This document shows positions 2,689 through 43,325 of a stretch of DNA of 64,000 nt, piece after piece (position 1 is the first letter of the stretch; each line of letters opens with the position of its first letter). Under the pieces are notes generated by a model that searched no databases, was not told the origin of the DNA, and saw only the letters and a list, made by a program, of their open reading frames with translations. Position numbers and translations under genes: made by a program. The DNA is from Thermoanaerobaculia bacterium. Its GTDB lineage: Bacteria > Acidobacteriota > Thermoanaerobaculia > Multivoradales > JAIOJS01. Where the stretch lies: positions 13,334-77,333 of the forward strand of contig JAUIDB010000010.1 in the NCBI GenBank assembly GCA_030429235.1, read 5' to 3'.

Positions 2689-3672
2689 CTACTTGCGAGG
2701 GGAGGCCTGCAGAACCGTGTTCAGTACCCCGTCGACGACGGTAGCCATCCGTTCATAGTCCAGCGTGTCGGCAGTGTCCGAGGACGTGTGGTAGTTGGGA
2801 TTCCTCATGAAGGCGGTGTCCGTCACCATCACAGCGTCGTATCCGTTGCGCCAGTAGTTGCGGTGGTCGGAAGCATCGATCCCCATTACCACGGGTCCGT
2901 TGAAGCTGAAGACTGGGATGGTGGAAGCGCCTCTGAACGACTTCTTGGCGTGGGCGGTGAGCCAGGCGTCTTCTGAGCGACCCACCACGGCGATGAAGTT
3001 CCCGTGGTCCGGGTAGAAGAGATCCAGGATCCAGCTGGGCCATGGCTGCTCGTCGACGAAGTAGCCGATCATCTCCAGGTTGATCATCCCCCAGATCTCC
3101 TGCTCCTCGGCGCCCAATAGGTCCGCGTGCACTCGGCTCCCCATGAGTGGGGAAGCGTAGAAGGGCGGCTCTTCCAGGGTGAAAGCGACCAGGGTTACCG
3201 GGAGCTTCGGCTGGGTGGCGCCGAGCAGCCGTGCTAGCTCCAGAAGGCCGGCCGTGCCGCTCGCATTGTCGTCAGCCCCTGGGAACTCGCCAAACAGAGT
3301 GAAGGCATCGTAGTGGGCTCCCACCACGACTCTGGGTCCCTCGTGCGGTCCAAACTCGGCGATCACGTTGTGGTAGTCGGATCCGTTCGCCGGGAAGGTC
3401 TGAAGGCGTACTCGGTCCGAGTACTGCTCGAACAGATCGGCGATGTAGTTGGCGGCTCGGGCGAGATTCTCCGGGTTGTCGCTCCCTCTCGGTACGACCT
3501 TCGTGGTCAGGAAGCGAGTGTGGGCCTCTAGAAGGTCAGCCCGCGCCCGATCGTGGGTCAGATCCTCGAAGTGGCCGAGGGAAGGCCGGCGGAGCACGAA
3601 GCAGGCGGTCGCGAGGAGTGTGAGCGCCAGGATTCCGGCAATCGTGAGGATTCGTAGTAGGCGGCGGAGCAC
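2689..3672 (-). CDS. M28-family Zn aminopeptidase, membrane-anchored or secreted
   Basis: GTG start with a signal-anchor, 'VVVGAHYDAF', and 'GADDNASGTAGLLELARLL' metal-binding motifs typical of peptidase M28. Confidence 0.8.
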   Translation of the reverse strand: MLRRLLRILTIAGILALTLLATACFVLRRPSLGHFEDLTHDRARADLLEAHTRFLTTKVVPRGSDNPENLARAANYIADLFEQYSDRVRLQTFPANGSDYHNVIAEFGPHEGPRVVVGAHYDAFTLFGEFPGADDNASGTAGLLELARLLGATQPKLPVTLVAFTLEEPPFYASPLMGSRVHADLLGAEEQEIWGMINLEMIGYFVDEQPWPSWILDLFYPDHGNFIAVVGRSEDAWLTAHAKKSFRGASTIPVFSFNGPVVMGIDASDHRNYWRNGYDAVMVTDTAFMRNPNYHTSSDTADTLDYERMATVVDGVLNTVLQASPRK

Positions 3673-3934: not shown

Positions 3935-3950
3935 TGGCACGTCAGTTGCT
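3935..3950 (+). promoter_or_regulatory. Sigma-54 (RpoN) -24/-12 promoter candidate upstream of the Kelch-like gene
   Basis: TGGCACG-tcag-TTGCT matches the TGGCACG-N4-TTGC(A/T) consensus with correct GG-to-GC spacing. It sits ~123 nt upstream of the ATG at 4073 on the same strand. Confidence 0.55.
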
Positions 3951-4072: not shown

Positions 4073-5392
4073 ATGTTCAATCTCAAGAATCTAGTCATCG
4101 CGACGATTTGCCTTCTGGCGATCCCGGCTGTGCTGCCGGCGCAGTGGGTAATCAACGGTTGGATGCCGGCGGGCACGGTACCGATCGACTACCCGCCCAG
4201 TCCGTTCTTTGCTGCAAGCTACCAGGGACACCTGTTCGTAATGGATGGAGTGACCGCTTGGGTTGGAGAGGTAGACCCCTCGACCGGCAACATCCTGAGC
4301 TGGGAGGAAACCACGGCACCCGATCGGACCCAGTACCGAGCAGCTTTGGTGCCCACGAGTGCGGCCGTCGTGGGTGACTACATCGTGATACCCCATGAAC
4401 CCGAGTCGCTGGTCGCTCGGTTCAACAGCGACGGATCGATCGACGGGGACTGGCTTCCAGCCCCCGGACTCGTCAATGCAAGAGCCACGACCGGTGTTGG
4501 AGCGACCGCCGTGTCAGGCTCCTTCCTCTACGTCGTGGGGGGACATGGGCCCGGCTCGGCCCTGGGACGTGTAGAGGGAACTCTCGTCAACCAGGACGGC
4601 ACCCTGGCTCCCTGGCAAGACCTTGGATCCCTACCGGCCCCCGTGATCCTCCACGACCCAAGGGCTGATGTGATCGATGGCTTCCTCTACGTGTTCGGAG
4701 GAGAAGGAACGTCGCCTTCGGGCTCCTTGACCCACTCTCGGAACGTTCACCGGGCCCAGATTCAGCCAGACGGTACGCTTGGATCCTGGGTCAAGGTCGG
4801 TGACATGCTGCAGGCTCGCCCGCATGCCGGCCACCTGCTTGCAAACGGATCCGTCCATGTGGTTGCCGGCGGTGTTCACTCCTACATGACAAGTTCGGTG
4901 GAGTCAGCGACTCTTGCCGAGTTTGGGGAGACCGGGAGTCATATCCAGAACGCTCCCTTGCCCTACTCTCCGGGCCTCAACGAACTGGCTACGGCCGTAG
5001 TGGGGTCTTGGGGTTACGTCGTTGGTGGGAACACCCGACCGTTCGGTGGTGGTTTGGTTGCGGATGTTCTCGTCGCTCAGCTCGCACCCCTTTGCTCGGC
5101 CGATGGCGGCCCGTTTCATTTCGTTCGTCGACGTGGGAAGCCCAGGACAGAGTCTGCATCCTGGGTCGGATGCGGGGGCTCAGGGACGCTGCGGATCCTC
5201 AACAGCGGCACTTCTTCCGCGGTTGTTGTGCTCAACGGGGGCGAAGTAGCAGGGCCACAAGACTTCAACCCCAACGTGCAGGTCCTCGAGATTCCGATTC
5301 TGGACCTACCGACCGAGAACACCTTGGAGGTGACCATGAGGGGAGCTCCGGGTTCGAGTCTGCAGATCTCGTTCATAGCAGCAGGCTCTTGA
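4073..5392 (+). CDS. Secreted Kelch/galactose-oxidase-like beta-propeller protein (hypothetical)
   Basis: ATG with an AAGGGG RBS, a signal peptide (MFNLKNLVIATICLLAIPAVLPAQ), and repeated 'LYVVGG'/'LYVFGGEG'/'YVVGGN' Kelch-like motifs. The 5' end has locally lower GC. Confidence 0.6.
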   Translation: MFNLKNLVIATICLLAIPAVLPAQWVINGWMPAGTVPIDYPPSPFFAASYQGHLFVMDGVTAWVGEVDPSTGNILSWEETTAPDRTQYRAALVPTSAAVVGDYIVIPHEPESLVARFNSDGSIDGDWLPAPGLVNARATTGVGATAVSGSFLYVVGGHGPGSALGRVEGTLVNQDGTLAPWQDLGSLPAPVILHDPRADVIDGFLYVFGGEGTSPSGSLTHSRNVHRAQIQPDGTLGSWVKVGDMLQARPHAGHLLANGSVHVVAGGVHSYMTSSVESATLAEFGETGSHIQNAPLPYSPGLNELATAVVGSWGYVVGGNTRPFGGGLVADVLVAQLAPLCSADGGPFHFVRRRGKPRTESASWVGCGGSGTLRILNSGTSSAVVVLNGGEVAGPQDFNPNVQVLEIPILDLPTENTLEVTMRGAPGSSLQISFIAAGS

Positions 5393-5685: not shown

Positions 5686-6804
5686 CTAGCCCGTCCTTGG
5701 CGACCTACGCGATGGTGAGATCGCGGCTGAGCTTGCCCGGAAGAAGATCAACGCCGAGAGTAGCGGGCCACCGAGTATGAGCATGAATCCAGAGAACGCC
5801 CTCACAGCCACGTTCTGAATACTGAGGTAGTAGTCCACGAGATGACTCGAGTATTGCCAGGCGTATTGGACCGTGGCGATCGCGATGAGGGCTGAGATAG
5901 CCGGTGCGGCATACCGACGGAGCCACTCTTGGCGTTTGAAGAATGCCGAGATGGGAGCCACTAGAACGGAAAACACCACCAGCATTACGGTCAAGGCCAC
6001 AGAAGCCCGAATCCAGAGGTTCATAACGCCCTTCTGGGTCAACAGGTCTCTCATTCGCTGGCTTTTGGCATGGTCTCGTGCTAGCTTGCCATCCAGGTCT
6101 CGAATGTTGACGTCAGCTCCCATGGCGATTAGTACTTCCGCTACCTGTGTGTAGTCCTCTCTGACCGCGGCCATCAACGGTGTAGTGCCGTCCTGTGCAG
6201 TCGCATCGACTTCGAGGTGTCTTCCGCTGTCTCCGATCTCGGTGAGGATTTCATGGTGACCCCGGGCCGCTACAAACCACAGTGGCGCCGCACCTTCAGG
6301 CCCACCTTTCAGGTTCAGGTTCGCACCGCCGCTGACGAGTTCCCGGAAGACCTCCAGTCGGCCCCGTTTGGCAGCAATGACGAGGGGTGTCTCTCCAAGG
6401 CTGTTTCTCGTGTCGATGTCTGGCATCCTGTCTTGAGCTAGGAGGAGCCTCAGGGTCTGCGTATCTGCGTTTCTTGCGGCTACGTGTAGGACAGTGTCTC
6501 CTGGGGCCATTTCCACAGAGTCGCCTGCTCCCTCAGGGACACGAAGAAAGGCGTCGGCTCCGTTGGCAAGAAGAAGTCGTGCTAATCCGGTACGGCTTCG
6601 GGAGATCGCCCAGAGCAGGGCTGAGATGCCCTCTCCATCCAGTTGGTTCGCATCGCCGGTGTTGGCCAGAGCCGAGAAGAGTTCCTTGACGTTCCCGGAC
6701 TTGGCTGCGGAGACCAGTTTCCCCTCGTTCGCCGCCGCTTGGCTGCTTGCCACGGTAGTCGCAGCCAGCACAAGAGCCACTTTTCCAGCTATACCGAGAT
6801 TCAC
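5686..6804 (-). CDS. Ankyrin-repeat protein with a C-terminal multi-pass membrane domain
   Basis: Signal peptide, then at least five ANK repeats ('GISALLWAISRSRTGLARLLLANGADA', 'GDTVLHVAARNADTQTLRLLLAQ', 'GETPLVIAAKRGRLEVFRELVSGGANLNL', 'GTTPLMAAVREDYTQVAEVLIAMGADVNIRD') and about three C-terminal TM helices. GC is lower than in the flanks. Confidence 0.8.
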   Translation of the reverse strand: MNLGIAGKVALVLAATTVASSQAAANEGKLVSAAKSGNVKELFSALANTGDANQLDGEGISALLWAISRSRTGLARLLLANGADAFLRVPEGAGDSVEMAPGDTVLHVAARNADTQTLRLLLAQDRMPDIDTRNSLGETPLVIAAKRGRLEVFRELVSGGANLNLKGGPEGAAPLWFVAARGHHEILTEIGDSGRHLEVDATAQDGTTPLMAAVREDYTQVAEVLIAMGADVNIRDLDGKLARDHAKSQRMRDLLTQKGVMNLWIRASVALTVMLVVFSVLVAPISAFFKRQEWLRRYAAPAISALIAIATVQYAWQYSSHLVDYYLSIQNVAVRAFSGFMLILGGPLLSALIFFRASSAAISPSRRSPRTG

Positions 6805-7619
6805 CGAGACTCACCCTTCCGAGACAGTTCGAGTTGAATTGATTGGAGTGACTCCCCAGTTCCTGCTAGGAAGCGAGATACCGCCTGCTTTTTTTCTGGC
6901 CGGAGATCTAGGGTTGCCGGACAGAGCCTCTTCTTCGTACAGCTGATACGGGATCGTTCCCACTCGTCTATGGATTGCGCCAACTCGAGCAGTCGAAGCG
7001 CTACGGTTTCTCGCTGTCGTTCGTAGCTATCGATTCTGTGAGACAGGGTGTTCTCGGTCCGTTCGGTTGTCTCCCGGACCGCAGTGAGTTCCTTTTTCGT
7101 CTCATAGAGCTGTTCGAGTGTTTCGTTGGCTTTGGCTTGCAGGTCCACAAGTTCGTCCTCGACGGTTTGTATGTGCGCCCCGACCCCAGCGAGTAGAAGC
7201 TCGAAACTCGTACGGATTTCCGAGCGCACTTCGTCGTCGTAGTTCTGAAGCTGCCCCTCCACTTGACGAAAGACCTTCTCTCGATGATCGTTAAAGGCGC
7301 TGGGAATTTGGTCTACGTACTGCATCACCTGCTCGTTGAGTTCGAGGTGTCTACGCACCAGATCGTCGTGTTCACTCCGAAGTACTGATAGCTCGACTTC
7401 GTGAATCCGGAGTTCCTTCCGGAGGTCGGCCGTCAACTCGTTCGCTCGCTGAAGCTGATCTGAACAGCCCTGGCCTTCGGACCTGCATCTCTTGAGATCC
7501 CTTTCGCAGCAGGCTGCGGTGCCACTGATAAGAAAGACGAGCAGTAGCCGAGTCGGCAACGAGCGGCTCCGGCGGTGGAGGCTCCTTTCAGATCGAACCA
7601 TCATGGATTCTTTGTCCAT
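6801..7619 (-). CDS. Coiled-coil lipoprotein (hypothetical), probably co-transcribed with the ankyrin gene
   Basis: ATG at 7619 with an AAGGAG RBS and a signal plus lipobox-like 'LISGTAAC'. A long heptad-rich coiled-coil region follows. There is a 4-nt overlap with the downstream ankyrin gene. Confidence 0.6.
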   Translation of the reverse strand: MDKESMMVRSERSLHRRSRSLPTRLLLVFLISGTAACCERDLKRCRSEGQGCSDQLQRANELTADLRKELRIHEVELSVLRSEHDDLVRRHLELNEQVMQYVDQIPSAFNDHREKVFRQVEGQLQNYDDEVRSEIRTSFELLLAGVGAHIQTVEDELVDLQAKANETLEQLYETKKELTAVRETTERTENTLSHRIDSYERQRETVALRLLELAQSIDEWERSRISCTKKRLCPATLDLRPEKKQAVSRFLAGTGESLQSIQLELSRKGESR

Positions 7620-7684
7620 CCGATCTCCTTCTTCCGAGGCCTTCTCGGGCGGCCTTCACAAAACAACTCGTGGGGCCATGGATC

Positions 7685-7700
7685 TGCAAGGCCCGGGCCA
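7685..7700 (-). promoter_or_regulatory. Sigma-54 -24/-12 promoter candidate for the coiled-coil/ankyrin operon
   Basis: The minus strand reads TGGCCC-gggcc-TTGCA, ~65 nt upstream of the ATG at 7619. GG and GC spacing is correct, but the match sits in a GC-palindromic context and could be chance. Confidence 0.35.
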
Positions 7701-7820
7701 AGCCCTCCCGGAGGCCTGGGTATGTCTGGACGCGATTTCCGGCGCGACCCCGAGTGCAAGCAGGTGAAGAGACTGGCTGTGGACGTTGCTAAGCTAGTGT
7801 CTACCCGTGTCTCTCGGAAG

Positions 7821-10577
7821 ATGCGCGCTCCTGACACAATAGGGCCAGCAATGAACAGAGACGGGGATCAGGGTGTCCCATCGGTTCCGAGCCCGGCCCT
7901 AGCAGCCGGAGCCACCTTCCGCTCCCGCTACGAGATCGTCGAACGGCTCGGTCAGGGCGGCTACGCCGAGGTGTACCGGGCTCAGGATCTAGAGATCGAT
8001 CGCGAGGTCGCCTTGAAGATCCTGCGGCCGGATCGGACGAGTGACGCTTCGGTACGCCGGCTGAAGCGGGAGGCGGCGGTGGCCCGGGATGTGGAGAGTC
8101 CTCATCTGGTTCGGGTCTTCGAGGTGGATACGTCGACTCTGCCGGCGTTTCTCACCATGGAGGTGGTGGAGGGGGGCAGCCTGCTGGAGGAGATCGCGGC
8201 GGGCCCGGTGCCGATCGAGCGGGTGCTGGAGGTGGCGCGGCAGGTACTCCTCGGGTTGGAAGCGCTGCACGGAATGGGGATCCTGCACCGGGACATCAAG
8301 CCCAGCAACGTGATGATCACGTCGGACGGCCAGGTGAAGCTGGCCGACTTTGGGATGGTCCACCAACTCTCGCGAGAGTCGACGCGGCTGACCGAGTCTT
8401 CGGCCATCGTGGGGACGATCGACTACGTGGCTCCGGAGACGGTTCTCGGCGATCCGCCCGACGGTCGAGCCGATCTCTACGGGCTCGGGTTGTTGCTGTT
8501 CGAGATGCTCACGGGGAGCCTGCCCTTCGGTGACTCCCCTTCGGCTCTCGGCGCTGCGTTGGAGCGCCTGCACCGATCACCGCCTCGGGTGGTACCGCTC
8601 CGACCAGAGACCCCCCGTTGGCTAGAGAAGGTCGTCCTGAGGCTCCTCGAACGACGTCCGGAAGACCGTTTCGCGAGTGCCGAGGCCGTGCGCCGCGCCT
8701 TGCGCGAGCATCGTGTGCCGCGATCTCGTCGGGTGTGGCGACGGAACGCCTGGCTGGCGGCGGGGATCGTGCTGGCCAGTGTCGCGAGCGCCTGGGTGCT
8801 GGCGAGGATAGGGGGATCGATCCCGGTCCTCTCGCACATCACGGCGCAGGAACCGGAGCCGGGCCTCTTCGGGCTCTCGGCTGACGGTGAGGTGCTGTGG
8901 CATCGGCCCGACCTGAGGTCCGGTTGGTGGGTCACTGCCCAGTCGAGTTCGGGGGGCGGACCGATTCCCCTCGGGTTGCGGGCCGGGGCCGGGCCACAGG
9001 ATCTGGAGGTGCTGCACCAGTTGCTGGTTCTCGATCCCACCAGCGGGGAGACGGTGGACCGAGTGACGCTGCCTTCGGCGGGAGATGAGTTTCCCGGTTT
9101 TGCACCGCGGTTCCAGCCGGAACTCCACGCGGTCGACATCGATGGAGATGGCGGCGAGGAGGTGGTGGTCACCTACTTTCACACCTACTGGCCCTCGTAC
9201 ACCGTGGTCTATGAACCCAGATGGCGCCGGGCGCGGGTGGCGCTGTTGGCGGCGGGGCACCACCGCCCGGTCGGCGTGGCCGACGTGGATTCTGACGGCA
9301 ACAACGAACTGATCTTCCTGGGAGTTTCGAACCGCATGGGTTGGTACGCTGGGCTGGCCGCAGTTTCGATGGTGCCTCCGATCAACCGGCCGGGAGAGGC
9401 GACGCTGAGTACGGCGGCGGCCACGACGCCGGACGGCTACTTCCTCAGGCGATGGCGGGGCATGGTTTGGTACGCGCTCGCTCCGCCCGGGATCTGGTGC
9501 TCCGGGATCGGCACCTGTACCGAAGTGGACCCCGATGCTCGTGAGATTCGCCTGGAACCCCCCGGCGGCTCGCAAGTGCGCTACTCGTTCGACGGGTACC
9601 TAGTGGAAGACCGGGTCTCCGGCCTCGATTCGGCGGAGCGGAACCGCCGCCGGGGTCGCGCCTACAAGCACCTGGAGGAAGCGGGGCGGCTGCTCGATTC
9701 GCGGCTCGAAGATTGGGGCGAGGAGGAGGCCGAGCGAGCGGTGGAGTTGGCTCGTACGGTCCGCGACCGCTTCCTTACCGACTGGGCCCTGCGCACGCTG
9801 GGGAGGATCGTGATCGAGCGCGGACGAATCGAGGAAGGAGAGCAGATCTTCGAACAACTCTCGGTCGACTCTCCAGCTGCTACCAGCGCCGCCTTCGAGG
9901 CCGCCCACGCGCTGCAATTGGCTGGCCGCCCGGATCGCTCTCTCGATTGGTACCCGCGGGCCTTCGGCGCCGCTGGGGACTGGGGACCGGGCCGCAGTCG
10001 CGACCGGCTGGTTCGGGGGTTGTTGTTGGCCTACAGCGAGATCGGTGACTACGAAGGAGCACAGAAGGCCCTCGACCGGTTCAGCAATCCCGGGCAGATC
10101 ACGTCGCGAATCGACACGTATCTGAGGCCCTACGTCGCCTGGCGGATGGAGGATCGATCCGTAGCCCCCATGCCCTACCGCGCGGGGAACCCCGATCTGG
10201 AGGTCTATTGGAGCCTCGAGCAGGCGCTGGCTCACGGTACCGAACTCGAAGTCCTTTGGGAACGGGTGCAACTCGCCATGGACCAGAGTTCGGAGGAATT
10301 GCCTTTGCTGCAGAATCTGGCCGGTGAGATCCAATGGAAGATGGGTCGCCGTGCGGAGGCTTTGGTCTGGTTCGAGAGGGCTTTCGCGGGAGGTGAAGCG
10401 GAGCTCGAGCGGAGTATCTCGGTCCGTGCCCACTTCGATCTGATCGTCAGCCGACTGCTGCGGGGAGTCCGCGACGCAGGCCTCGAGACCAGAAGCAGAG
10501 AGATCGCGAGCGTGGCGGAAGCCTGGGATTCTCATCAGCGGCAGCTGCGTCATCTCATGTCTGTCAGAGGGCAGTAA
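7821..10577 (+). CDS. Hanks-type Ser/Thr protein kinase with a TM segment, FG-GAP/VCBS-like repeats and C-terminal TPR-like region
   Basis: Kinase subdomains 'LGQGGYAEVYRA', 'VALKIL', 'HRDIKPSNVM', 'DFGM' and 'APE' are present. There is a TM segment after the kinase, 'DIDGDGGEEVVV'/'DVDSDGNNELIFLG' repeats, and a TPR-like C-terminus. The ORF opens at 7575 but overlaps the convergent gene. Start chosen at the ATG at 7821 (7851 is also possible). Confidence 0.8.
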   Translation: MRAPDTIGPAMNRDGDQGVPSVPSPALAAGATFRSRYEIVERLGQGGYAEVYRAQDLEIDREVALKILRPDRTSDASVRRLKREAAVARDVESPHLVRVFEVDTSTLPAFLTMEVVEGGSLLEEIAAGPVPIERVLEVARQVLLGLEALHGMGILHRDIKPSNVMITSDGQVKLADFGMVHQLSRESTRLTESSAIVGTIDYVAPETVLGDPPDGRADLYGLGLLLFEMLTGSLPFGDSPSALGAALERLHRSPPRVVPLRPETPRWLEKVVLRLLERRPEDRFASAEAVRRALREHRVPRSRRVWRRNAWLAAGIVLASVASAWVLARIGGSIPVLSHITAQEPEPGLFGLSADGEVLWHRPDLRSGWWVTAQSSSGGGPIPLGLRAGAGPQDLEVLHQLLVLDPTSGETVDRVTLPSAGDEFPGFAPRFQPELHAVDIDGDGGEEVVVTYFHTYWPSYTVVYEPRWRRARVALLAAGHHRPVGVADVDSDGNNELIFLGVSNRMGWYAGLAAVSMVPPINRPGEATLSTAAATTPDGYFLRRWRGMVWYALAPPGIWCSGIGTCTEVDPDAREIRLEPPGGSQVRYSFDGYLVEDRVSGLDSAERNRRRGRAYKHLEEAGRLLDSRLEDWGEEEAERAVELARTVRDRFLTDWALRTLGRIVIERGRIEEGEQIFEQLSVDSPAATSAAFEAAHALQLAGRPDRSLDWYPRAFGAAGDWGPGRSRDRLVRGLLLAYSEIGDYEGAQKALDRFSNPGQITSRIDTYLRPYVAWRMEDRSVAPMPYRAGNPDLEVYWSLEQALAHGTELEVLWERVQLAMDQSSEELPLLQNLAGEIQWKMGRRAEALVWFERAFAGGEAELERSISVRAHFDLIVSRLLRGVRDAGLETRSREIASVAEAWDSHQRQLRHLMSVRGQ

Positions 10578-10638
10578 GTAGCGACTGTGCTATTCTGAGC
10601 GCACTTTCCGATCCGAGAAGAAGGGGGAGGCCTCACGC

Positions 10639-12414
10639 ATGCTGCGTTTTGTCGCCCGGAACGAGGGCCAGGAGCGTCGATTTCCGATCGCGGCCGATGG
10701 CGTGTGGACCGTAGGCTCGGCGATCGAGTGCGAACTCTCTGTCCCCTTCGACGGGGTCTCGCGGCGGCATGCCAGCCTCGAGCGCCGGGGAAGCCGAGTC
10801 TGGCTCACGGATTGTGGTTCCAAGAACGGCCTCAGGGTGGAGGGGCGGGTCGAGGCGCAGATCGAACTGCTGCCAGGGATTCGGGTAGACCTCGGTGGCA
10901 CGGTGGTCGAGATCGAAGAGGCAGCGTCGTCGGATACACGATTCGCGGTCGAGCTGCGGCGTTCGTCGAGCGTGGCTTCTCGACTGCGCACCAGTACGGC
11001 GGGAGCGATGGCCGGCGACGGACGTTCTTCACCCGCTGCCGCGCTCGCCTTCGTTCGGCGGTTCGAGCGAGCGTCGCTCCAACCGGGCTCGGAACTCTGG
11101 TCGCGACTCGTCGCCGAGACTCTGGAGATCCTCGAGGCCGAAACCGTGGCGGTGCTGCAGCGGGTTCCCGGGGAGCCTCGCGAGGTGTTGGAACAGTGCT
11201 GGGGCAGGCACCGGGTGCCAGGAGCCGAGGTAGAGGATCCGTGGAGCGCGGCCCAGCTCTCGGCCGAACTGGAAGGGGAATCGGCCAGAATCGTGGCCAT
11301 CCTGGGCCAGGGGGCCAAGGTCGATCGCTGGAAGGAGGACTTCTTCTCCTACCTGGCGACCCGCTGGCAGGAGCAGCGTCACGACCCTCCCGCTCCTCGC
11401 GCCCAGCCGGCCCAGGTCGAGCCGGAACGAGGCCCCGTGGTTCTCGGGCGCTCCGCCGCCATGGTAGAGGTCGAAACGCTGGCTCGGGCCGCGGCCGAGA
11501 GTGGTCTCAACGTCGTGCTCCTCGGCGAGACGGGGACCGGCAAGGAGGTTCTCTCACGCTTCATCCATCGTCTGCGTGCCACCGGGAAGGGTGAGCTGGT
11601 AGCGATCAACTGCGCTGCGATTCCCTCCGAACTCCTCGAAGCCGAACTCTTTGGCGTTGCCAGCCGAGTGGCGACCGGCGTAGATCCCCGCGAGGGGCTC
11701 TTCGTGCGCGCCCACGGGGGAACCCTTCTCCTGGACGAGATTGGCGAGATGCCCTACACGCTGCAGGCGAAACTGCTGCGAGCGCTCCAGGAGCGGGAGG
11801 TCATGCCGGTGGGAGGGCGACGGCCGATGCCGGTCGATCTTCGAGTCATCTCGACGACGCACCGTCCCCTGGCTCGGCTCGTGGCCGAGAAGAAGTTTCG
11901 CGCTGATCTCTACTACCGACTCCGCGGACTCGAGATCTGGCTTCCACCCCTCCGAGAGCGACTCGAAGACATTCCGGAGTTCGCCACTCTCTTTGCCCAG
12001 AGAGCAGCCCGTGCTTCGGGAAAGCGGGTCCGCGGGATCACCGAGCGTGCGCTGCGGCTTCTTACCTGCCACCGCTGGCCCGGCAACGTGCGGGAACTCG
12101 AGACCGACATGGAACGCGCTGTGGCGTTGTGTGCCGACGGAGGCAGCATCGACTCGCGGCTCTTCTCCCACCTGGATCCAGTCGCGGGACGACCTAGTTC
12201 CGTCTCGGTGCTCGAAGCCCCGACCTCGAGGGCCGTGGCGCCCAAGGCTGGCCACTCTACGGTCACACTGCGGGAGGAACTCGACGCTACCGAGCGCGAG
12301 CGAATCCGACGAGAGCTGGCGCTTTCGGGCGGCAACAAGTCGGAGGCCGCTCGAAGGCTCGGGGTGACCTGGAATGGGCTGGTGATGAAGATGAAGCGAT
12401 TGGGGTTACGGTAG
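10639..12414 (+). CDS. Sigma-54-dependent transcriptional activator (bEBP) with an N-terminal FHA domain and C-terminal Fis-type HTH
   Basis: ATG with a GGGGGAGG RBS. The FHA core is 'VGSAIECELSVPFDGVSRRHASLERRGSRVWLTDCGSKNGLRVEG'. The AAA+ sigma-54 interaction domain has a 'LLGETGTGKE' Walker A, 'GGTLLLDEIGEM', and 'FRADLYYRL'. The HTH is 'GNKSEAARRLGVTWNGLVMKMKRLG'. Confidence 0.85.
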   Translation: MLRFVARNEGQERRFPIAADGVWTVGSAIECELSVPFDGVSRRHASLERRGSRVWLTDCGSKNGLRVEGRVEAQIELLPGIRVDLGGTVVEIEEAASSDTRFAVELRRSSSVASRLRTSTAGAMAGDGRSSPAAALAFVRRFERASLQPGSELWSRLVAETLEILEAETVAVLQRVPGEPREVLEQCWGRHRVPGAEVEDPWSAAQLSAELEGESARIVAILGQGAKVDRWKEDFFSYLATRWQEQRHDPPAPRAQPAQVEPERGPVVLGRSAAMVEVETLARAAAESGLNVVLLGETGTGKEVLSRFIHRLRATGKGELVAINCAAIPSELLEAELFGVASRVATGVDPREGLFVRAHGGTLLLDEIGEMPYTLQAKLLRALQEREVMPVGGRRPMPVDLRVISTTHRPLARLVAEKKFRADLYYRLRGLEIWLPPLRERLEDIPEFATLFAQRAARASGKRVRGITERALRLLTCHRWPGNVRELETDMERAVALCADGGSIDSRLFSHLDPVAGRPSSVSVLEAPTSRAVAPKAGHSTVTLREELDATERERIRRELALSGGNKSEAARRLGVTWNGLVMKMKRLGLR

Positions 12415-12466
12415 TTTAGAGAGCAGGGCCCCTGATTGCGGACGGGTGGTCGATGAGCCCGGCTCC

Positions 12467-13345
12467 TTATGCCACCAGCAAAGCCTTGGCCAGCGCCGCT
12501 CGCAGCTTTCCGAACACCACGGCGAGGTACATCAGGAGGAGCCCGATCGCCACCGTGGTTAGCCAGAGGCCGGGGAAGATCCACCAGGGCACGAACCACT
12601 CGAGCGAACCGAGGACCACGAGAGGGCGGTCGAAGATCAGCTGGGCGAAGGGACCGATGAAGCAGGAGAGGGCCAGACTGAGCAGGGTGACCGAGACGAC
12701 GAAGGTGAGAATGCCGAGTGGCAGGGAGAGCAGGCAGTAGAGCAGGGTCTTCCAGGTGAGGGAGTCGGTGAGCCAGTACCTGGCCTTGGGGAGCCAGCCC
12801 GTTTCGGTGGGCAGCGAGACCGGCCGTCGTGGCATGCGCACGCCGATCAACGCCTCGAGCAGACGCCCCTCTACCAATCCCAGCATGCGCAGGGACATGG
12901 CGAACCCGATGAAGAACGGCACGCCGAAGATGAGGATGCCGAACCCCAGGGACATCGACAGGCCGACCACCGCCCAGGTGAAGTAGAAGAGCCCGGTCAG
13001 GAGACCGAATAGCATGAGGAAGAGGGCCCCGTAGGCTTTGGGATCGATCAGCATGCCGAGGGTTCCGCTGAGGAAACTGACCACCGGCGCCGGGGTTTCG
13101 AGGGCCTTGGAGACCGTGATCTCGGTGGCCCGGTAGGAGGCGGCGACCTCCTGGGGCGACCCAAAACCGGCGATCGCACGGTCGACCAGCTCCTGCTCGG
13201 TGAGGTCACTCGCGGAAGAAGAACGCTCACTGCGCAGGAACTCGTCGACGTCGTAGAGAGCGTCCTGAACCATCGCAGGGTCGCTGGCGGTGAGTGCGAG
13301 GCGAATGGCATTGCGGTACTGTTCGGTGGTCTTGATACGAGTCAT
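12467..13345 (-). CDS. PadR-associated membrane sensor protein (N-terminal HAAS/DUF1700-like domain, C-terminal multi-TM LiaF-like region)
   Basis: The N-terminal cytoplasmic domain follows the DUF1700 pattern ('EQYRNAIRLAL...VDEFLRSE...GFGSPQEVAASY'), followed by 4-6 TM helices. There is a 4-nt overlap with the upstream padR. Confidence 0.65.
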   Translation of the reverse strand: MTRIKTTEQYRNAIRLALTASDPAMVQDALYDVDEFLRSERSSSASDLTEQELVDRAIAGFGSPQEVAASYRATEITVSKALETPAPVVSFLSGTLGMLIDPKAYGALFLMLFGLLTGLFYFTWAVVGLSMSLGFGILIFGVPFFIGFAMSLRMLGLVEGRLLEALIGVRMPRRPVSLPTETGWLPKARYWLTDSLTWKTLLYCLLSLPLGILTFVVSVTLLSLALSCFIGPFAQLIFDRPLVVLGSLEWFVPWWIFPGLWLTTVAIGLLLMYLAVVFGKLRAALAKALLVA

Positions 13346-13830
13346 GAGTCGGTCTCCTGAGTGGTGTCGTGCTGGGAGGCTTCGACCGCCCGACGGATCT
13401 GGTCACCGCCGTCGAGGACCCGGTCGACGAAGTTTCTGGTATCGGTCCAGGCCGCTTCGATCAGCTCGAGGGCCTCGTGGCCGAGCGGGGTTACCTGGTA
13501 GTAGCGCCTAGGGGGGCCCGAATCGGAGGGCTCGAGGGAGCTGCTCAACAGCCCCTCGCGTTCGAGCGATCGCAGCACCGGGTAGAGCGTCCCCTGCTTC
13601 ATCGGCAGGGGAGCGCGGGTAACCTGCTCTAGGATCTTGGACAGCTGGTAGCCGTACATCGGCTGCTCGGCCCGGGCCAGCAGGGCGAGCAGGGTCACAC
13701 TGACCGAACCGGCATTGAGCTGACGTTGGATCTTGGCCACGGCGGGCGGGTAGTCGGTTTCGTGCATAGAGGGTTCCCCGTGGGTCGGAGTGGCGGCACC
13801 TGGCTGTGCCTCGGTCTCTAGTACGATCAT
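13342..13830 (-). CDS. PadR-family transcriptional regulator
   Basis: The winged-HTH signature 'YGYQLSKILEQVTRAPLPMKQGTLYPVLRSLEREGLLSS...RRYYQVTPLG' is present, with an ATG at 13830. Confidence 0.85.
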   Translation of the reverse strand: MIVLETEAQPGAATPTHGEPSMHETDYPPAVAKIQRQLNAGSVSVTLLALLARAEQPMYGYQLSKILEQVTRAPLPMKQGTLYPVLRSLEREGLLSSSLEPSDSGPPRRYYQVTPLGHEALELIEAAWTDTRNFVDRVLDGGDQIRRAVEASQHDTTQETDS

Positions 13831-16832: not shown

Positions 16833-17822
16833 CTAGCGTTCGCCTCGGGACTCGGGCTCCGGGCTCTGCTCTGATTCCAGGCAAAGACTCTCGTCCGGCG
16901 GCGACCACGATCCGTCTCGACAGTAGAGCCAGAGCAGACCAAGGCGGTAGCTGGTGCCGCTGTAGGCGGAGTGGGTGCCGCCGGGAATGGTCAGGACCTC
17001 ATGAGCCCACGGCGCGGTGTCGGCATCCTGCCAGGCGGCGCTCCAGGCCAGGGCGGCCTCTCGGAGCGGTGGGTAGTCCTCGGATCCGCTGGTGACGACC
17101 AGACCCAGATCCTTCCGCTCGGCTGGGGCCGGAGTCGAGAAGTAGAGCTCGCGCCCGGGGTCGAAAGCCGGGTTGTTGGCGATTCGGCCCCAGAAGAGAT
17201 CCGGGTGCCGGAAGGCGGAGTAGAGCACCATCGAGCCCCCGCGGCTCTGTCCGAACAGGATGCGTCGTTCGGGGTCGACTCGGTAGTCCTTCTCGATCCG
17301 TGGGAGGAGTTCGCTGGACAGAAAGCGGTGGAAGTTCTCGGCCCCGCCCCGGGCTGGGTCGCCGTCCGGGGTGGGGGCCGAAAAGTCGAAGCCCCGGCGG
17401 TTGGTGTCGGGGGCGAAGGAGCCGTACGAGATGCCGACCACCACCGCCTCGGGCAATCCGAGGTCGTAGGTCAGGAAGAGATGACTGGCGGCCAGGATCG
17501 GGAAGAGCGAATCGCCATCCAGCACGTAGACCGTGGGGTAGCGGCGATCTGAGTCCGTCTCGTACCCGTCCGGCAGGCGAACGTAGATATGGAACGGCCG
17601 GCCGACCGCGCGCGAGTCGATCCGGAAGTAGCCCCCGGCCAGCGCGGGAAGGTGGTCCAGGGGAGTGGCGGCTTTGGCGACCGCTGGGTTCGGAGTCTGG
17701 TCGCCCGATGCGGGGGCGAGGTTGTCGACGGGGTGGCCCCAACCAGGGGCGCCCAACAGTTCCAAGATCAGCAGGGAACTCGCCAGGACGACGAGGAGGA
17801 TGGCTCTCACCCTGCGGACCAT
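16833..17822 (-). CDS. Esterase-family alpha/beta hydrolase (enterochelin/siderophore-esterase-like), secreted
   Basis: Shows 'PTVYVLDGDSLF' and 'FGQSRGGSMVLYSAFRHPDLF' (nucleophile elbow GxSxGG). The ORF opens at 18293, but the signal peptide and a plausible ATG are at 17822. Confidence 0.65.
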   Translation of the reverse strand: MVRRVRAILLVVLASSLLILELLGAPGWGHPVDNLAPASGDQTPNPAVAKAATPLDHLPALAGGYFRIDSRAVGRPFHIYVRLPDGYETDSDRRYPTVYVLDGDSLFPILAASHLFLTYDLGLPEAVVVGISYGSFAPDTNRRGFDFSAPTPDGDPARGGAENFHRFLSSELLPRIEKDYRVDPERRILFGQSRGGSMVLYSAFRHPDLFWGRIANNPAFDPGRELYFSTPAPAERKDLGLVVTSGSEDYPPLREAALAWSAAWQDADTAPWAHEVLTIPGGTHSAYSGTSYRLGLLWLYCRDGSWSPPDESLCLESEQSPEPESRGER

Positions 17823-17866
17823 CCGCCGGCGGGCGGGAGTTCGATGGGTTGGGACTTCACCGGATG

Positions 17867-18415
17867 CTATTCGAACTCGAGATCCCGTCCCGGGAGGGGG
17901 GGCGGCGTCTCGTCCACTCGTTCGAGATCCTGGAACTCGGGGCTGGTGACGATGGTCTCCAGGTGTTCGACGAGCTGGTGGAGTCGTTCCTTCCGCAAGG
18001 CACGACCGCTCGCTGAGTCCGAGGGGTTGGGGGCCGCGGCTCGGAGTCCTTCCTCGGCTTGCTGCACCACCGAGGACCCTTCGGGCCAGCGACGGCTGGT
18101 CACCAACACGGAGAGGTCCTCGATGCGACGCGACAGCCGTTCGAGTTCGTCCTGAGTGGCGGACTGGCCCATGAGTTCCTGCAGTTTCTGCTCCTCCCAC
18201 TCGCGGCCACCGATACCGAAGATGCCAAAGACCTGGACGGTGTGGCTCAAAAACCCGATGCCCCAGCCCAGGAGCGGGAAGATGAACCACCACTCGCCGG
18301 GGGAGACGAGAAGATTCATAGTGAACAGCGCGGCGTTGACCCCCACGTAGGAGGTCAGGTGGCCGTAGTAGTCCCGCAGCTCTTTGACCCGCTTGCGGGC
18401 CTGGGCTTCGTTCAT
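17867..18415 (-). CDS. 2TM-domain membrane protein (PF13239-like)
   Basis: The N-terminus 'KRVKELRDYYGHLTSYVGVNAALFTMNLLVSPGEWWFIFPLLGWGIGFLSHTVQVFG' matches the 2TM-domain consensus. An acidic C-terminal tail follows. Confidence 0.6.
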   Translation of the reverse strand: MNEAQARKRVKELRDYYGHLTSYVGVNAALFTMNLLVSPGEWWFIFPLLGWGIGFLSHTVQVFGIFGIGGREWEEQKLQELMGQSATQDELERLSRRIEDLSVLVTSRRWPEGSSVVQQAEEGLRAAAPNPSDSASGRALRKERLHQLVEHLETIVTSPEFQDLERVDETPPPLPGRDLEFE

Positions 18416-18578
18416 GGGGTAAGCCTACTACGTTCGCTCCGGGGCGTGGGGCTTCGTAACCGACCCTCGACTCGTACGTCCAAGGATCTGCGGTGCCGGC
18501 TTGCGAAGTCGTTCAGCCCAGTGTGGGTAGGAGCATCGCTCCCGAAGCGCTCACCTCGAGAGTTGGAGAATCAGCGTC

Positions 18579-19793
18579 ATGAACCGAAACCGAGTCCTTC
18601 GGCGATCCCTTGGCGTCAGCCTTGCCTGGTGCATCGCGGCGCTGTCGGTGGCGGCTGGCTCGAGCACAGCTCCCGACCCGCCGATCGCCCTGGGGGTCGA
18701 GAAGACGCTCGACTCCGACCGGCTGGGACACGTTCGTCGGGTCTTCGTCTCCCTACCGTCCGACTATGCCAAGGGGGAGGAGCGGTATCCGGTGCTCTAT
18801 CTGTTGGACGGCGACCGACTCTTCGAGTCGACGGCGGCGGCCGCTCGGTTCCTGGCTTCGGCCGGCGCGATCCCTCCCCTCATCGTGGTCGGAGTGGCCA
18901 ACGATGTCGACCGCGGCTACTACCTCACTCCGCCCTTCGATCGTTGGCTTTCCCGCAGTGGGGGCGCCGACGAGTTTCTGGGGTTTCTCGAGACCGAGCT
19001 GATCCCCTGGGTCGACTCCGAGTATCGGACGGCGCCGCATCGCACCCTCGCCGGTTCGTCGTTCGGCGGCATCTTCGTGCTGCATGCGCTGTACTCGAAG
19101 CCGGACCTCTTCCACGCCTACCTCGCCGCCAGTCCGAGCCTGCACATGGGGGAGGGATCGCTGGTCGACGCGGCGGCGTCGAGACTCGATCGCGGGCTGC
19201 CGACTTCGCGCTTTCTGTTTCTGAGCCTGGCCGACGAACGCAACGAACTGGTTTGGGGCCAGGAGATGCGGACCCACTTCGACCGGTTGGTCGAGCTACT
19301 GAACTATCGCCACCGATCCGCGGGGCTGCGGTTCGAGGCGCGGCAGTATCCCGACGAGACCCACTCCACGGTGAAACTGCGCGCCTTCTCGGACGGGCTG
19401 CGCAGCCTCTTCTGGCAGTGGCCCATCCCCGAGTTTCGCTCCCGCCGTGGCTTGTCCGGTCTCGAGGAACACTTTCGTGAACTGTCGAAGGAACTGGGGT
19501 TCGAGTTGGGGATTCCGGTGGTGGCCTTCGTCGACCTCGGGTCTCGGGCCCTCGATCGCGACGAGGCCGACCAGGCGGTCGAGTTGTTCCGCCTGGCTAC
19601 CGAGCGGTTCGCGGAGTCACCGATCCTCTGGCACGGCCTGGCGGAGTCGCTGGAGAAGGTCGGTGAGGGTGACTCGGCGCTCGAAGCCATGGCCCGAGCC
19701 GTGGACACGGCGCAGAGATCGGACGATCCCGACCTGGAGCGGTACCGCCGCCGCCTTCAGGCGATGGAGCAGCGACTGGGCGTCGAGCCCTGA
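18579..19793 (+). CDS. Secreted esterase-family alpha/beta hydrolase with a C-terminal TPR-like helical domain
   Basis: Signal peptide, then 'YPVLYLLDGDRLF' and 'LAGSSFGGIFVLHALYSKPDLF'. It is a paralogue of the gene at 16833..17822. The C-terminal ~120 aa is helical and TPR-like. Confidence 0.7.
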   Translation: MNRNRVLRRSLGVSLAWCIAALSVAAGSSTAPDPPIALGVEKTLDSDRLGHVRRVFVSLPSDYAKGEERYPVLYLLDGDRLFESTAAAARFLASAGAIPPLIVVGVANDVDRGYYLTPPFDRWLSRSGGADEFLGFLETELIPWVDSEYRTAPHRTLAGSSFGGIFVLHALYSKPDLFHAYLAASPSLHMGEGSLVDAAASRLDRGLPTSRFLFLSLADERNELVWGQEMRTHFDRLVELLNYRHRSAGLRFEARQYPDETHSTVKLRAFSDGLRSLFWQWPIPEFRSRRGLSGLEEHFRELSKELGFELGIPVVAFVDLGSRALDRDEADQAVELFRLATERFAESPILWHGLAESLEKVGEGDSALEAMARAVDTAQRSDDPDLERYRRRLQAMEQRLGVEP

Positions 19794-43060: not shown

Positions 43061-43309
43061 GGTGTCTCCTGGTCGGTGGAAAGGGTTCGATGCCTCTGAC
43101 GACAGCAATGACCTTGCCAACCTCGGGGGCGGAGGGCTCGGGTGGAGCGATCCTGGCCGATCCGAAGGTTGAGAAGAATCGGGGCCGGTCGGCGCCTCGT
43201 GTCCGAGAGGGGCGAGTCGTTCGTAGCCACCGACGGTGGTGTCTGGGAAACCAGACGGTTCCGCACCATGGAGCCCCGGTCACTGCCCGTTGGAAACGGA
43301 GGAATCGTC

Positions 43310-43325
43310 TGGCCTCGGGATTGCA
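43310..43325 (+). promoter_or_regulatory. Sigma-54 -24/-12 promoter candidate upstream of the OMP gene at 43353
   Basis: TGGCCT-cggga-TTGCA has correct GG and GC spacing and ends ~28 nt before the ATG. Confidence 0.35.

Follow-up and report, generated by a model that had tools for sequence, protein, structure and literature searches.

Among the closest described arrangements is PknH–EmbR of Mycobacterium tuberculosis, in which the gene for a receptor Ser/Thr kinase adjoins the gene for an FHA-containing transcription factor, as it does in the window (the whole 64-kb stretch of DNA analyzed here). EmbR, a sigma-70-type activator of the SARP family, has its FHA domain at the C terminus, with the canonical Arg, whereas the window regulator is an AAA+ enhancer-binding-type protein (EBP) with an N-terminal FHA domain that lacks this Arg and with an additional GAF-like domain. 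As in the PknH–EmbR type, adjacency of receptor kinase and FHA-containing regulator is conserved: a receptor Hanks kinase adjoins the regulator in 11/11 diverged loci of the FHA-EBP family. A second likeness is to the FHA-EBPs of Myxococcus xanthus (Jelsbak, Givskov and Kaiser 2005, as cited in PMC12288465), NtrC-like activators in which an FHA domain replaces the receiver, as here. As far as that citation conveys, they imply Ser/Thr-kinase input to a sigma-54 regulon, an inference that dates from the discovery of FHA-domain activators in Myxococcus. The window family, for its part, is mainly acidobacterial and has the GAF-like domain, an xVATGV loop, and strict kinase synteny. A first, sequence-only reading of this DNA had likened the locus to the Myxococcus Pkn/FHA-EBP logic; the likeness holds as an analogy of architecture. 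To our knowledge, kinase synteny of this kind has not been documented for the Myxococcus FHA-EBPs.

Two further systems resemble parts of the regulator. DVUA0100 of Desulfovibrio vulgaris shares with other “GVATGV” EBP homologs (Francke 2011; Kazakov 2015) and with the window family a noncanonical L1 loop, G/R-V-A-T-G-V, in which Phe is replaced by Ala. Like the window family, DVUA0100 has a long nonreceiver N-terminal region and predicted sigma-54 promoters at its target operons. Unlike the window EBP, it lies inside a type III secretion cluster and has no reported kinase partner or FHA domain, and a tblastn search of plasmid records with the window FHA region gave no Desulfovibrio match. In GarA and OdhI, the FHA domain binds the protein's own phosphorylated Thr in a disordered arm; the window EBP likewise has its FHA domain beside a disordered stretch in which an acidic-Thr motif is conserved, and GarA is one of the top matches by sequence and by structure. 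The GarA arm is N-terminal and its FHA domain has the canonical Arg, whereas in the window EBP the Thr lies C-terminal to the FHA domain, in the linker to the GAF–AAA+ effector.

Our reading, to which we assign a probability of about 0.6, is that the two genes encode a dedicated one-to-one transmembrane kinase-to-activator module that drives a neighboring sigma-54 promoter, a Ser/Thr-kinase counterpart of a two-component system. As far as we found in the literature, no cognate kinase–activator pair has been defined for Ser/Thr-kinase input to sigma-54, and a search for literature joining FHA with GAFTGA or bEBP returned nothing relevant. The FHA-EBP family offers such a pair, with the kinase partner identified by strict synteny and a likely target promoter adjoining. 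Three purified proteins and a single promoter would thus suffice for a direct test of the pathway.

Architecture of the kinase and the regulator

The sequence-only reading had placed a Ser/Thr kinase gene directly upstream of an FHA-EBP gene, described the kinase as receptor-like (kinase domain, transmembrane helix, and extracytoplasmic FG-GAP/TPR region), and proposed that FHA replaces the receiver domain of the EBP. All three points are borne out: both genes are present with a 61-nt gap (Table 1), the kinase has one transmembrane helix and a beta-rich plus TPR outer region, and a domain search of the EBP found FHA at the N terminus and no receiver domain. Co-transcription is likely because the spacer holds no terminator.

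The kinase reading frame is open from 7575 and has plausible ATG starts at 7722 (the public gene call, 951 aa), 7821 (918 aa, the start used in the sequence-only reading), and 7851. We favor 7821 because alignment with partner kinases then keeps a conserved N-terminal Thr. PF00069 matches the catalytic domain with 168.7 bits (cut-off 31.7), and the domain looks active, judging from its intact catalytic motifs (VALK63, HRD156, DFG176, and APE204), which are conserved in the partner kinases. The partner kinases examined also have a transmembrane helix at the same position. Pfam FG-GAP_3 is subthreshold on the outer domain, and the homolog P0251 has precomputed PF01839/PF13517 matches. A T-x-x-hydrophobic motif stands at the N terminus of 8/10 partner kinases, and most partner kinases have it as T-[E/D]-[S/T]-V; in the window kinase the motif is degenerate (PDTIGP) and present only if the start is 7821. 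Compared with named NCBIfam equivalogs, the kinase reaches no curated cut-off, the best being PknB_PASTA_kin (270 bits versus 450).

In the EBP, Pfam identifies FHA, Sigma54_activat, AAA_lid_14, and HTH_8; the GAF-like domain between FHA and AAA+ had been overlooked in the sequence-only reading. PF00158 Sigma54_activat matches aa 269 to 433 with 182.7 bits (versus 20.2), and comparison with ZraR gives E 1.7e-62. Between 139 and 149 of 152 family members keep any one of the three ATPase motifs, Walker A, Walker B, and R-finger. The recognition helix of the window EBP reads TWNGLVMK compared to TRNGLALK in the family. No named NCBIfam equivalog (NifA, NorR, NtrC, PspF, and others) scored above cut-off, with PrdR the best at 268 bits versus 795. 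A profile of the N-terminal FHA and GAF-like region matched 295 clusters (50% identity) at E <= 1e-30, a count that includes some unrelated multi-FHA proteins. Members of the FHA-EBP family are mostly from Thermoanaerobaculia and other Acidobacteriota, and the family may be both sizeable and almost wholly uncultured. Judging from named relatives, the source organism is probably a Thermoanaerobaculia bacterium.

Table 1. Positions of the genes, domains, and sequence elements discussed in the text
Feature	Coordinates	Strand	Details
Putative target operon	5686..7619	-	272-aa coiled-coil lipoprotein-like gene 6801-7619 and 372-aa ankyrin-repeat gene 5686-6804, 4-nt overlap
Sigma-54-type -24/-12 element (predicted)	7685..7700	-	TGGCCCGGGCCTTGCA, 1 mismatch; 66 nt upstream of ATG 7619, between the kinase gene and the divergent gene
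Receptor Hanks-type Ser/Thr kinase gene	7821..10577	+	918 aa from ATG 7821; Pfam Pkinase E 2e-49
Cytoplasmic kinase catalytic domain, aa 37-291	7929..8693	+	Pfam, motif scan, partner-kinase alignment
Single transmembrane helix, aa 310-330	8748..8810	+	short Arg-rich juxtamembrane stretch before the helix; hydropathy scan
Extracytoplasmic beta-rich domain with DxDxDG (FG-GAP/VCBS-like) motifs, aa ~336-590	8826..9590	+	AlphaFold model md9797c6dac10, strands 2-254
Extracytoplasmic TPR-like alpha-solenoid, aa ~604-917	9630..10571	+	
Spacer between kinase and EBP genes	10578..10638	+	61 nt; Shine-Dalgarno sequence GAAGGGGGAGG; no terminator found
FHA-GAF-AAA+-HTH enhancer-binding-type regulator gene	10639..12414	+	591 aa
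FHA domain, aa 1-95	10639..10923	+	G26, S41, H44, S61, N63 conserved; S27 in place of canonical Arg
Ser/Thr-rich linker	10924..11031	+	pLDDT <50 (disordered in the model), about aa 100-126
Candidate phospho-acceptor T120 in linker	codon 10996-10998	+	family motif [D/E]-T-x-x-[L/V]
GAF-like domain, aa 132-247	11032..11379	+	well folded, directly before AAA+
Sigma-54-interaction AAA+ domain and lid, aa 269-507	11443..12159	+	Walker A GETGTGKE (296), Walker B LLLDEI (363), R-finger motif PPLRER (436)
L1 loop RVATGV, aa 343-348	11665..11682	+	at the canonical GAFTGA site; ZraR alignment ELFGHEKGAFTGADK versus ELFGVASRVATGVDP
Fis-type HTH_8 DNA-binding domain, aa 549-588	12283..12402	+	PF02954, 32.1 bits versus 22

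The L1 loop and neighboring -24/-12 elements

The description of the regulator as a sigma-54 activator stands in part. The Sigma54_activat AAA+ domain with its Walker motifs, R-finger, and HTH supports it, but GAFTGA is absent, and the loop at this site, RVATGV, differs from that of ZraR by replacement of Phe with Ala and deletion of one residue. The deviation is family-wide: the counts are 111 for RVATGV, 12 for GVATGV (the exact DVUA0100 type), and 9 for GAATGV, with others making up the rest, and GAFTGA was found in none of more than 160 members. A response-regulator EBP with a canonical GAFTGA is encoded elsewhere in the window, at 37494-38888. Thus, the sigma-54 interface of the lineage is not generally altered, and the presence of this second EBP suggests that the source genome has sigma-54, although no RpoN box was found within the 64-kb window.

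Published views on such loops diverge. GAFTGA mutants are mostly inactive, and Francke et al. (2011) classed the GVATG_V variant as “not probable” for sigma-54 activation, with TyrR, DhaR, HupR, and VpsR as sigma-70-dependent precedents. Kazakov et al. (2015) argued, from regulon prediction only, that the variant loop is still functional, and their analysis assigned predicted sigma-54 promoters to DVUA0100, a GVATGV regulator. On the first view, the window regulator could be EBP-derived but no longer an activator of sigma-54. Like TyrR, DhaR, HupR, and VpsR, it would work at sigma-70 promoters, or else repress transcription or serve as an ATP-dependent switch, while still under kinase control; the nearby -24/-12 sites would then belong to other, canonical EBPs. 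The altered loop, the absence of GAFTGA throughout the family, the canonical loop of the second EBP in the window, and the Francke classification with its precedents all favor this explanation. We nonetheless consider it unlikely, because Thr346 and Gly347 never vary and the loop shows strict conservation, not decay, because -24/-12 sites are enriched specifically beside the pairs and correctly oriented, because candidate enhancer repeats lie upstream of such sites, and because the same sigma-54 conclusion was reached for DVUA0100.

The promoter evidence is as follows. The sequence-only reading had named sigma-54 promoters at 3935, 7700, and 43310. Predicted sigma-54-type sites do lie next to the pair, with a one-mismatch element on the minus strand in the window and local enrichment of such sites across the family; farther off, 4073-5392 has a perfect -24/-12 match at 3935. 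Matches to -24/-12 number 1.46 per kb in pair-flanking intergenic DNA compared to 0.27 in other intergenic DNA and 0.16 in coding DNA, an enrichment of about fivefold (Poisson p = 1.7e-4), and the pair-flanking sites (8/8) all point into a neighboring gene, 43 to 288 nt from its start. Over the window as a whole, sites with up to two mismatches are at chance level (8 versus 8.6 expected), whereas near-perfect sites are significantly in excess (4 versus 0.84 expected). In three related loci, the stretch from the EBP stop codon to the promoter holds inverted CGCCAAGC/GCTTGGCG repeats, an enhancer-like placement. The CGCCAAGC repeat is absent from the window, where positions 7600-7860 hold no convincing inverted repeats; a scan of 7400-12700 for sigma-70 promoters and terminators found nothing. 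The operon at 5686-7619 is assigned as the putative target because it lies downstream of the predicted promoter, an assignment by position only.

The FHA domain and its linker

The N-terminal domain has the FHA beta-sandwich fold and matches Pfam FHA at aa 23 to 86 (41 bits versus 20.7). The sequence-only reading had made the residues expected to bind phospho-Thr (pThr) a test of its interpretation, and the outcome goes partly against it: the Gly of the beta3-beta4 loop, the Ser-x-x-His motif of the beta4-beta5 loop, and the Asn of the beta6-beta7 loop are conserved, but the Arg that follows the Gly and contacts the phosphate is missing. All 153 members have S41 and H44, and 144 of them have R42; at the Ser/Thr-x-Asn motif, S61 is kept in 151, N63 in 152, and K/R62 in 130 of the 153. 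After the invariant G26, by contrast, the residue is Ser in 85, Ala in 58, Thr in 6, and Arg in 2, so that S, A, or T (S27 in the window) takes the place of Arg in 149/153. When the family is aligned by profile to FHA domains of solved structure, its “LG[S/A/T]” falls on the “IGRA,” “IGRG,” and “AGRH” of Rv1747, FhaA, and GarA. In characterized FHA domains, mutation of this Arg abolishes phosphopeptide binding, and the classical ligand rule is a preference for a hydrophobic residue at pT+3. The linker column of T120 is Thr in 110/153 members, with a hydrophobic residue at +3 in 80/153; the window linker reads T-A-G-A, unlike the family's T-x-x-L/V. By analogy with GarA and OdhI, we infer that a phosphorylated linker Thr may be bound by the FHA domain in cis.

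The missing Arg allows a different account, in which the FHA domain mediates interaction independently of phosphorylation, as it does in YscD and PrgH of type III secretion systems. Kinase and regulator would then be permanently associated, or phosphorylation of the regulator would need no pThr–FHA docking, and the real gate would be the GAF-like domain, perhaps together with a small ligand. Absence of the Arg throughout the family speaks for this account, as do the near-equal scores of the Pfam Yop-YscD_cpl and FHA models (E 4.8e-10 versus 2.6e-10) and the placement of a well-folded GAF-like domain directly before AAA+, as in NifA-, NorR-, and Nlh1-type EBPs. We regard it as rather improbable.

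Conserved pairing and a proposed mechanism

The kinase and the FHA-EBP are a conserved functional pair, kept together across distant soil Acidobacteria. The neighbor relation, whose loss would have refuted the sequence-only reading, is maintained in a count that rests on 11 loci: the kinase is the direct neighbor of the EBP in 10 distinct loci, and in the 11th a toxin–antitoxin pair is inserted between them. Gene order varies (kinase-then-EBP tandem in 6, EBP-then-kinase in 3, convergent in 1, divergent in 1), and the remaining neighbors are not conserved. In the ten loci compared (all but L066), the EBPs are pairwise 40 to 52% identical, except for one pair at 75%. As a control, we used 79 ordinary EBP loci from a profile scan of genome contigs with full-length alignment (generic AAA+ patterns), which returned L066 as its sole family member. 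A Hanks kinase lies within 8 kb at 1/79 of these loci, and at 0/12 of the acidobacterial subset. Partner kinases co-vary with their EBPs, the orthologs having the same whole 900-aa architecture, sensor part included; full-length homologs of the window kinase (35–38% identity, ~870–905 aa) stand beside FHA-EBPs in four loci. Two kinases with homologous sensors (33–37% identity) have no FHA-EBP neighbor, and thus the linkage is strict in the EBP-to-kinase direction only. No PP2C phosphatase was found in the neighborhood of the pair. That the adjacency is coincidental, one of the many Ser/Thr kinases of Acidobacteria having chanced to adjoin the regulator, is very improbable. Kinase paralogs are indeed common in these genomes (three loci carry extra kinases) and sensor homologs occur without an EBP neighbor, but the difference between family and control loci (Fisher p = 3e-13), the persistence of the pairing through inversions and rearrangements, and the full-length orthology of the partner kinases effectively refute it.

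On the observed or computed features (domain anatomy, intact catalytic and ATPase motifs, strict gene pairing, and local -24/-12 enrichment), we build a proposed series of phosphorylation, docking, and activation steps. A signal outside the cell would be received by the beta-rich/FG-GAP-like and TPR domain of the kinase, whose cognate partner, and most likely substrate, would be the FHA-EBP. The FHA domain would dock on a phospho-Thr site of the kinase, for which the N-terminal motif of most partner kinases is a candidate, and the kinase would then phosphorylate the conserved linker Thr (T120 in the window). Capture of this pThr by the FHA domain, whether in cis or from one subunit to another, would alter GAF-like gating of AAA+ ring assembly in a step resembling the GarA/OdhI switch. 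The assembled ATPase would activate the sigma-54-type promoter directly beside the module; in the window, the element at 7700-7685 (-) would drive the divergent coiled-coil lipoprotein-like and ankyrin operon. The earlier claim of phospho-Thr-dependent control of a sigma-54 activator gains from the conserved pair, the receptor-kinase anatomy, and the nearby sigma-54-type sites, but support for the mechanism is partial, because the family as a whole departs from the canonical FHA Arg and from GAFTGA.

These same two deviations make the family a test of two motif dogmas, the FHA Arg for phospho-Thr binding and the GAFTGA Phe for sigma-54 remodeling. We tentatively entertain the possibility that the pair is a self-contained “Ser/Thr two-component system” whose regulator activates sigma-54 without the GAFTGA Phe and whose FHA domain reads phospho-Thr without the canonical Arg, perhaps through R42 and K62. 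If so, both textbook motif rules would be lineage conventions and not mechanistic necessities. Published sigma-54 regulon surveys filter on GAFTGA and would therefore exclude the whole xVATGV FHA-EBP family; were the possibility true, such filters would systematically drop a working class of activators.

In relatives, the target would be the next gene downstream, usually that of a large secreted protein. The putative targets there are large proteins, secreted or at the surface, that carry CBM96, fn3, lectin, or metalloprotease domains, which suggests that in soil Acidobacteria, an abundant group, the module controls the outside of the cell.

Conserved pairing of the kinase and FHA-EBP genes

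The sequence-only reading had placed a kinase gene directly upstream of one for an enhancer-binding-type regulator with an FHA domain (FHA-EBP), and both genes were found with the expected domains, separated by a 61-nt gap with a strong ribosome-binding site and, in our scan, no terminator. In the window (G+C ~65%), the Hanks-type kinase ORF is open from 7575 to a stop at 10577, with plausible ATG starts at 7722 (public gene call, 951 aa), 7821 (the earlier choice, 918 aa), and 7851. Numbered from 7821, the kinase matches Pfam Pkinase at aa 37–291 (E 2e-49), retains intact VALK63, HRD156, DFG176, and APE204 motifs, and has one hydrophobic helix (aa 310–330) preceded by a short Arg-rich segment. 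The product of gene 10639–12414 is the 591-aa EBP. No NCBIfam equivalog model reached its cut-off for either protein.

Features of the window and of related loci (nucleotide positions in the window unless stated)
Feature	Position	Strand	Remark
FHA domain of EBP	aa 23–86		Pfam
Sigma54_activat domain of EBP	aa 269–433		Pfam
AAA_lid_14 and HTH_8 domains of EBP			Pfam
VWA-domain protein; M28 peptidase; two esterase-family proteins	1198–2661; 2689–3672; 16833–19793	+; −; 
Perfect −24/−12 match TGGCACGTCAGTTGCT	3935–3950	+	122 nt before start of gene 4073–5392
439-aa secreted protein	4073–5392	+	signal peptide
372-aa ankyrin-repeat protein	5686–6804		4-nt overlap with 6801–7619
Divergent gene, 272-aa coiled-coil protein	6801–7619		lipoprotein-like N-terminus
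Near-perfect predicted sigma-54 site TGGCCCGGGCCTTGCA	7700–7685	−	66 nt before ATG of gene 6801–7619
PF13796 'Sensor'/HAAS membrane protein	12467–13345	−	after PadR gene
PadR-family regulator	13342–13830	−	
ELWxxDGT repeat protein, 929 aa	14030–16819	+	11 repeats; TIGR04534, E 1e-155
NtrC-type response-regulator EBP, 464 aa	37494–38888	−	perfect GAFTGA (ELFGHVKGAFTGAASDKRG)
Inverted CGCCAAGC/GCTTGGCG repeats	L002 9718–9755; L003 9729–9778; L091 9853–9895		~30 nt apart

From 1.84 billion proteins, an FHA plus GAF-like profile retrieved 295 cluster representatives at E <= 1e-30, with multi-FHA proteins among them; the FHA-EBP family is sizeable but almost wholly metagenomic. Homology searches returned a protein identical to the window EBP on public contigs, relatives of the same architecture at 38–48% identity, and one partial match at 68%, the named relatives being mostly Thermoanaerobaculia, with one from Vicinamibacteria. 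We compared the window with the gene neighbourhoods of nine diverged members and with one family locus from a genome scan. Each distinct locus has a single-pass receptor kinase adjoining the FHA-EBP, in kinase-then-EBP tandem (window, L002, L003, L005, L091, L090), EBP-then-kinase (L004, L007, L066), convergent (L008), or divergent (L093) order, and no other neighbour is conserved across them. Only at L090 are the two not immediate neighbours: a 98-aa gene and a PIN-domain gene, toxin-antitoxin-like, sit between them (7074–7798). Pairwise identity among the ten EBPs compared is 40–52%, with a single pair higher, at 75%. Alignments to the window kinase span ~870–905 residues, sensor included, for the kinases of L002, L003, L005, and L008, while those of L004 and L007 form a second, shorter subtype.

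Among 79 control loci of ordinary EBPs from the genome scan (±8 kb flanks), by contrast, a Hanks kinase was present at one (L031, ~3.8 kb from the EBP) and at none of the 12 from Acidobacteriota (Fisher's exact test, family versus control loci, p = 3e-13). The neighbour conservation on which the sequence-only reading depended is therefore borne out, and there is strong support for a functional link between the two genes. The linkage holds in one direction only, as two kinases with sensors 33–37% identical to that of the window kinase have no FHA-EBP alongside. Additional Hanks kinase genes lie near some family loci (L007 5570–7125 and 12487–14520; L004 3805–5358; L090 1–1827); at L007, four kinase-like genes fall within 9 kb, one with 72% identity to the partner in the kinase domain, and this clustering suggests local kinase duplication.

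The same logic, a receptor kinase gene adjoining that of an FHA-containing transcription factor, is found in PknH-EmbR, and the architecture of the window EBP recalls the FHA-EBPs of Myxococcus, reportedly the subject of work by Jelsbak in 2005. Our literature search found no description of a syntenic kinase/FHA-EBP pair.

FHA residues and candidate phospho-sites

Phospho-Thr-dependent control of a sigma-54 activator by the kinase, as first proposed, is plausible, but the interpretation is only partly supported because two motifs on which it rests, the FHA Arg and GAFTGA, are non-canonical here. When the family FHA profile was aligned to solved structures, its 'LG[S/A/T]' fell on 'IGRA' of Rv1747, 'IGRG' of FhaA, and 'AGRH' of GarA. 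Across a 153-member alignment, G26, S41, and H44 never vary, 151 members have S61 and 152 have N63, R42 occurs in 144, and position 62 holds K or R in 130; the residue after G26 is S (85), A (58), T (6), or R (2). These counts argue that selection acts strongly on the fold and on four of the five signature residues, while the phosphate-binding Arg is systematically absent. Of the pThr-binding residues named in the sequence-only reading, then, G, S-x-x-H, and N are kept, but the Arg of G-R is missing.

FHA domains classically prefer a hydrophobic residue at pT+3. The otherwise variable, disordered EBP linker contains one column at which 110/153 members have Thr and another 10 have Ser; the residue before it is usually D or E, and in 80/153 the +3 position holds L, V, I, or F. 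The window equivalent of this column is T120, in the context T-S-T-A-G-A. In 8 of 10 partner kinases, T-[E/D]-[S/T]-V stands ~25 residues N-terminal to the catalytic domain. Since both unpaired paralogs have it as well, this motif is a kinase-family feature, not one unique to EBP partners; the window kinase has 'PDTIGP' only, and only with the start at 7821. Because both T-x-x-hydrophobic motifs fit the FHA preference, we suggest that the regulator may dock on the kinase through FHA binding of the kinase motif, and that a GarA-like pThr-FHA switch within the regulator could follow.

The L1 loop and predicted sigma-54 promoters

In the AAA+ domain, alignment of EBP 'ELFGHEKGAFTGADK' to ZraR 'ELFGVASRVATGVDP' places RVATGV where GAFTGA, the sigma-54 contact, normally stands, with a loop one residue shorter. 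Fetched members have RVATGV (111), GVATGV (12), GAATGV (9), RIATGV (8), or minor variants, and none has GAFTGA. This is not a lineage-wide drift, because the NtrC-type EBP of the same genome keeps the standard motif perfectly. Near-consensus −24/−12 sites lie near that gene at 43104–43119 (−) and 43310–43325 (+).

Mutants of GAFTGA are as a rule inactive, and the literature on the GVATGV-type variant is divided. Francke et al. (2011) considered 'GVATG_V, F3->A' homologs (Desulfovibrio, Solibacter), and also 'GAATG_T' (Bdellovibrio), 'not probable' sigma-54 activators, whereas Kazakov et al. (2015) argued that GVATGV is no bar to activation by DVUA0100 of Desulfovibrio vulgaris since sigma-54 promoters occur in the regulon predicted for it. 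The L1 variant of DVUA0100 and other 'GVATGV' homologs matches that of the FHA-EBP family.

The predicted promoters beside the pairs bear on this question. In ten family loci with gene calls, the density of −24/−12 matches (GG and GC obligatory, <=2 mismatches) is 1.46 per kb across 5.47 kb of intergenic DNA beside pairs, 0.27 per kb in intergenic DNA elsewhere, and 0.16 per kb in coding sequence (Poisson p = 1.7e-4), and 8/8 pair-flanking sites aim into a neighbouring gene, 43–288 nt from its start. At L002, L003, and L091 a site just past the EBP stop codon is oriented to the next gene (encoding a CBM96/Flg_new_2 protein, an unannotated 560-aa protein, and an fn3 protein, respectively), and the inverted repeats lie between the stop codon and this predicted promoter, at L091 as the palindrome GCGCCAAGCGCTCTTGGCGCC. 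The background for the 8-mer is 0.09–0.12 per kb. The repeats look like a candidate enhancer for this branch; they are absent from the window, and the HTH recognition helix of the window EBP is unlike the family's. Together, the site enrichment and enhancer-like repeats are indirect evidence that the family still uses sigma-54. Within the window, TGGCAC-N5-TTGCW was found four times with <=1 mismatch (0.84 expected) and at chance frequency with <=2; site 7700–7685 falls in the 201-nt region separating the kinase gene from the divergent gene.

That the Arg-less FHA and the xVATGV loop are both functional seems to us rather unlikely; if they were, two textbook motif rules would be relaxed. Our literature search did not find this combination described.

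Genes around the modules

The PadR and PF13796 genes (12467–13830) face the EBP gene in convergent orientation, with just 52 nt between them and its stop codon; at L004, a PadR gene beside a MacB/FtsX permease gene lies near the pair. The ELWxxDGT repeat protein had no Pfam match, and the 439-aa secreted protein, Gly-rich and beta-propeller-like by eye, had none in Pfam or NCBIfam. Around the kinase/FHA-EBP modules, exported hydrolases and surface proteins are a recurrent feature.
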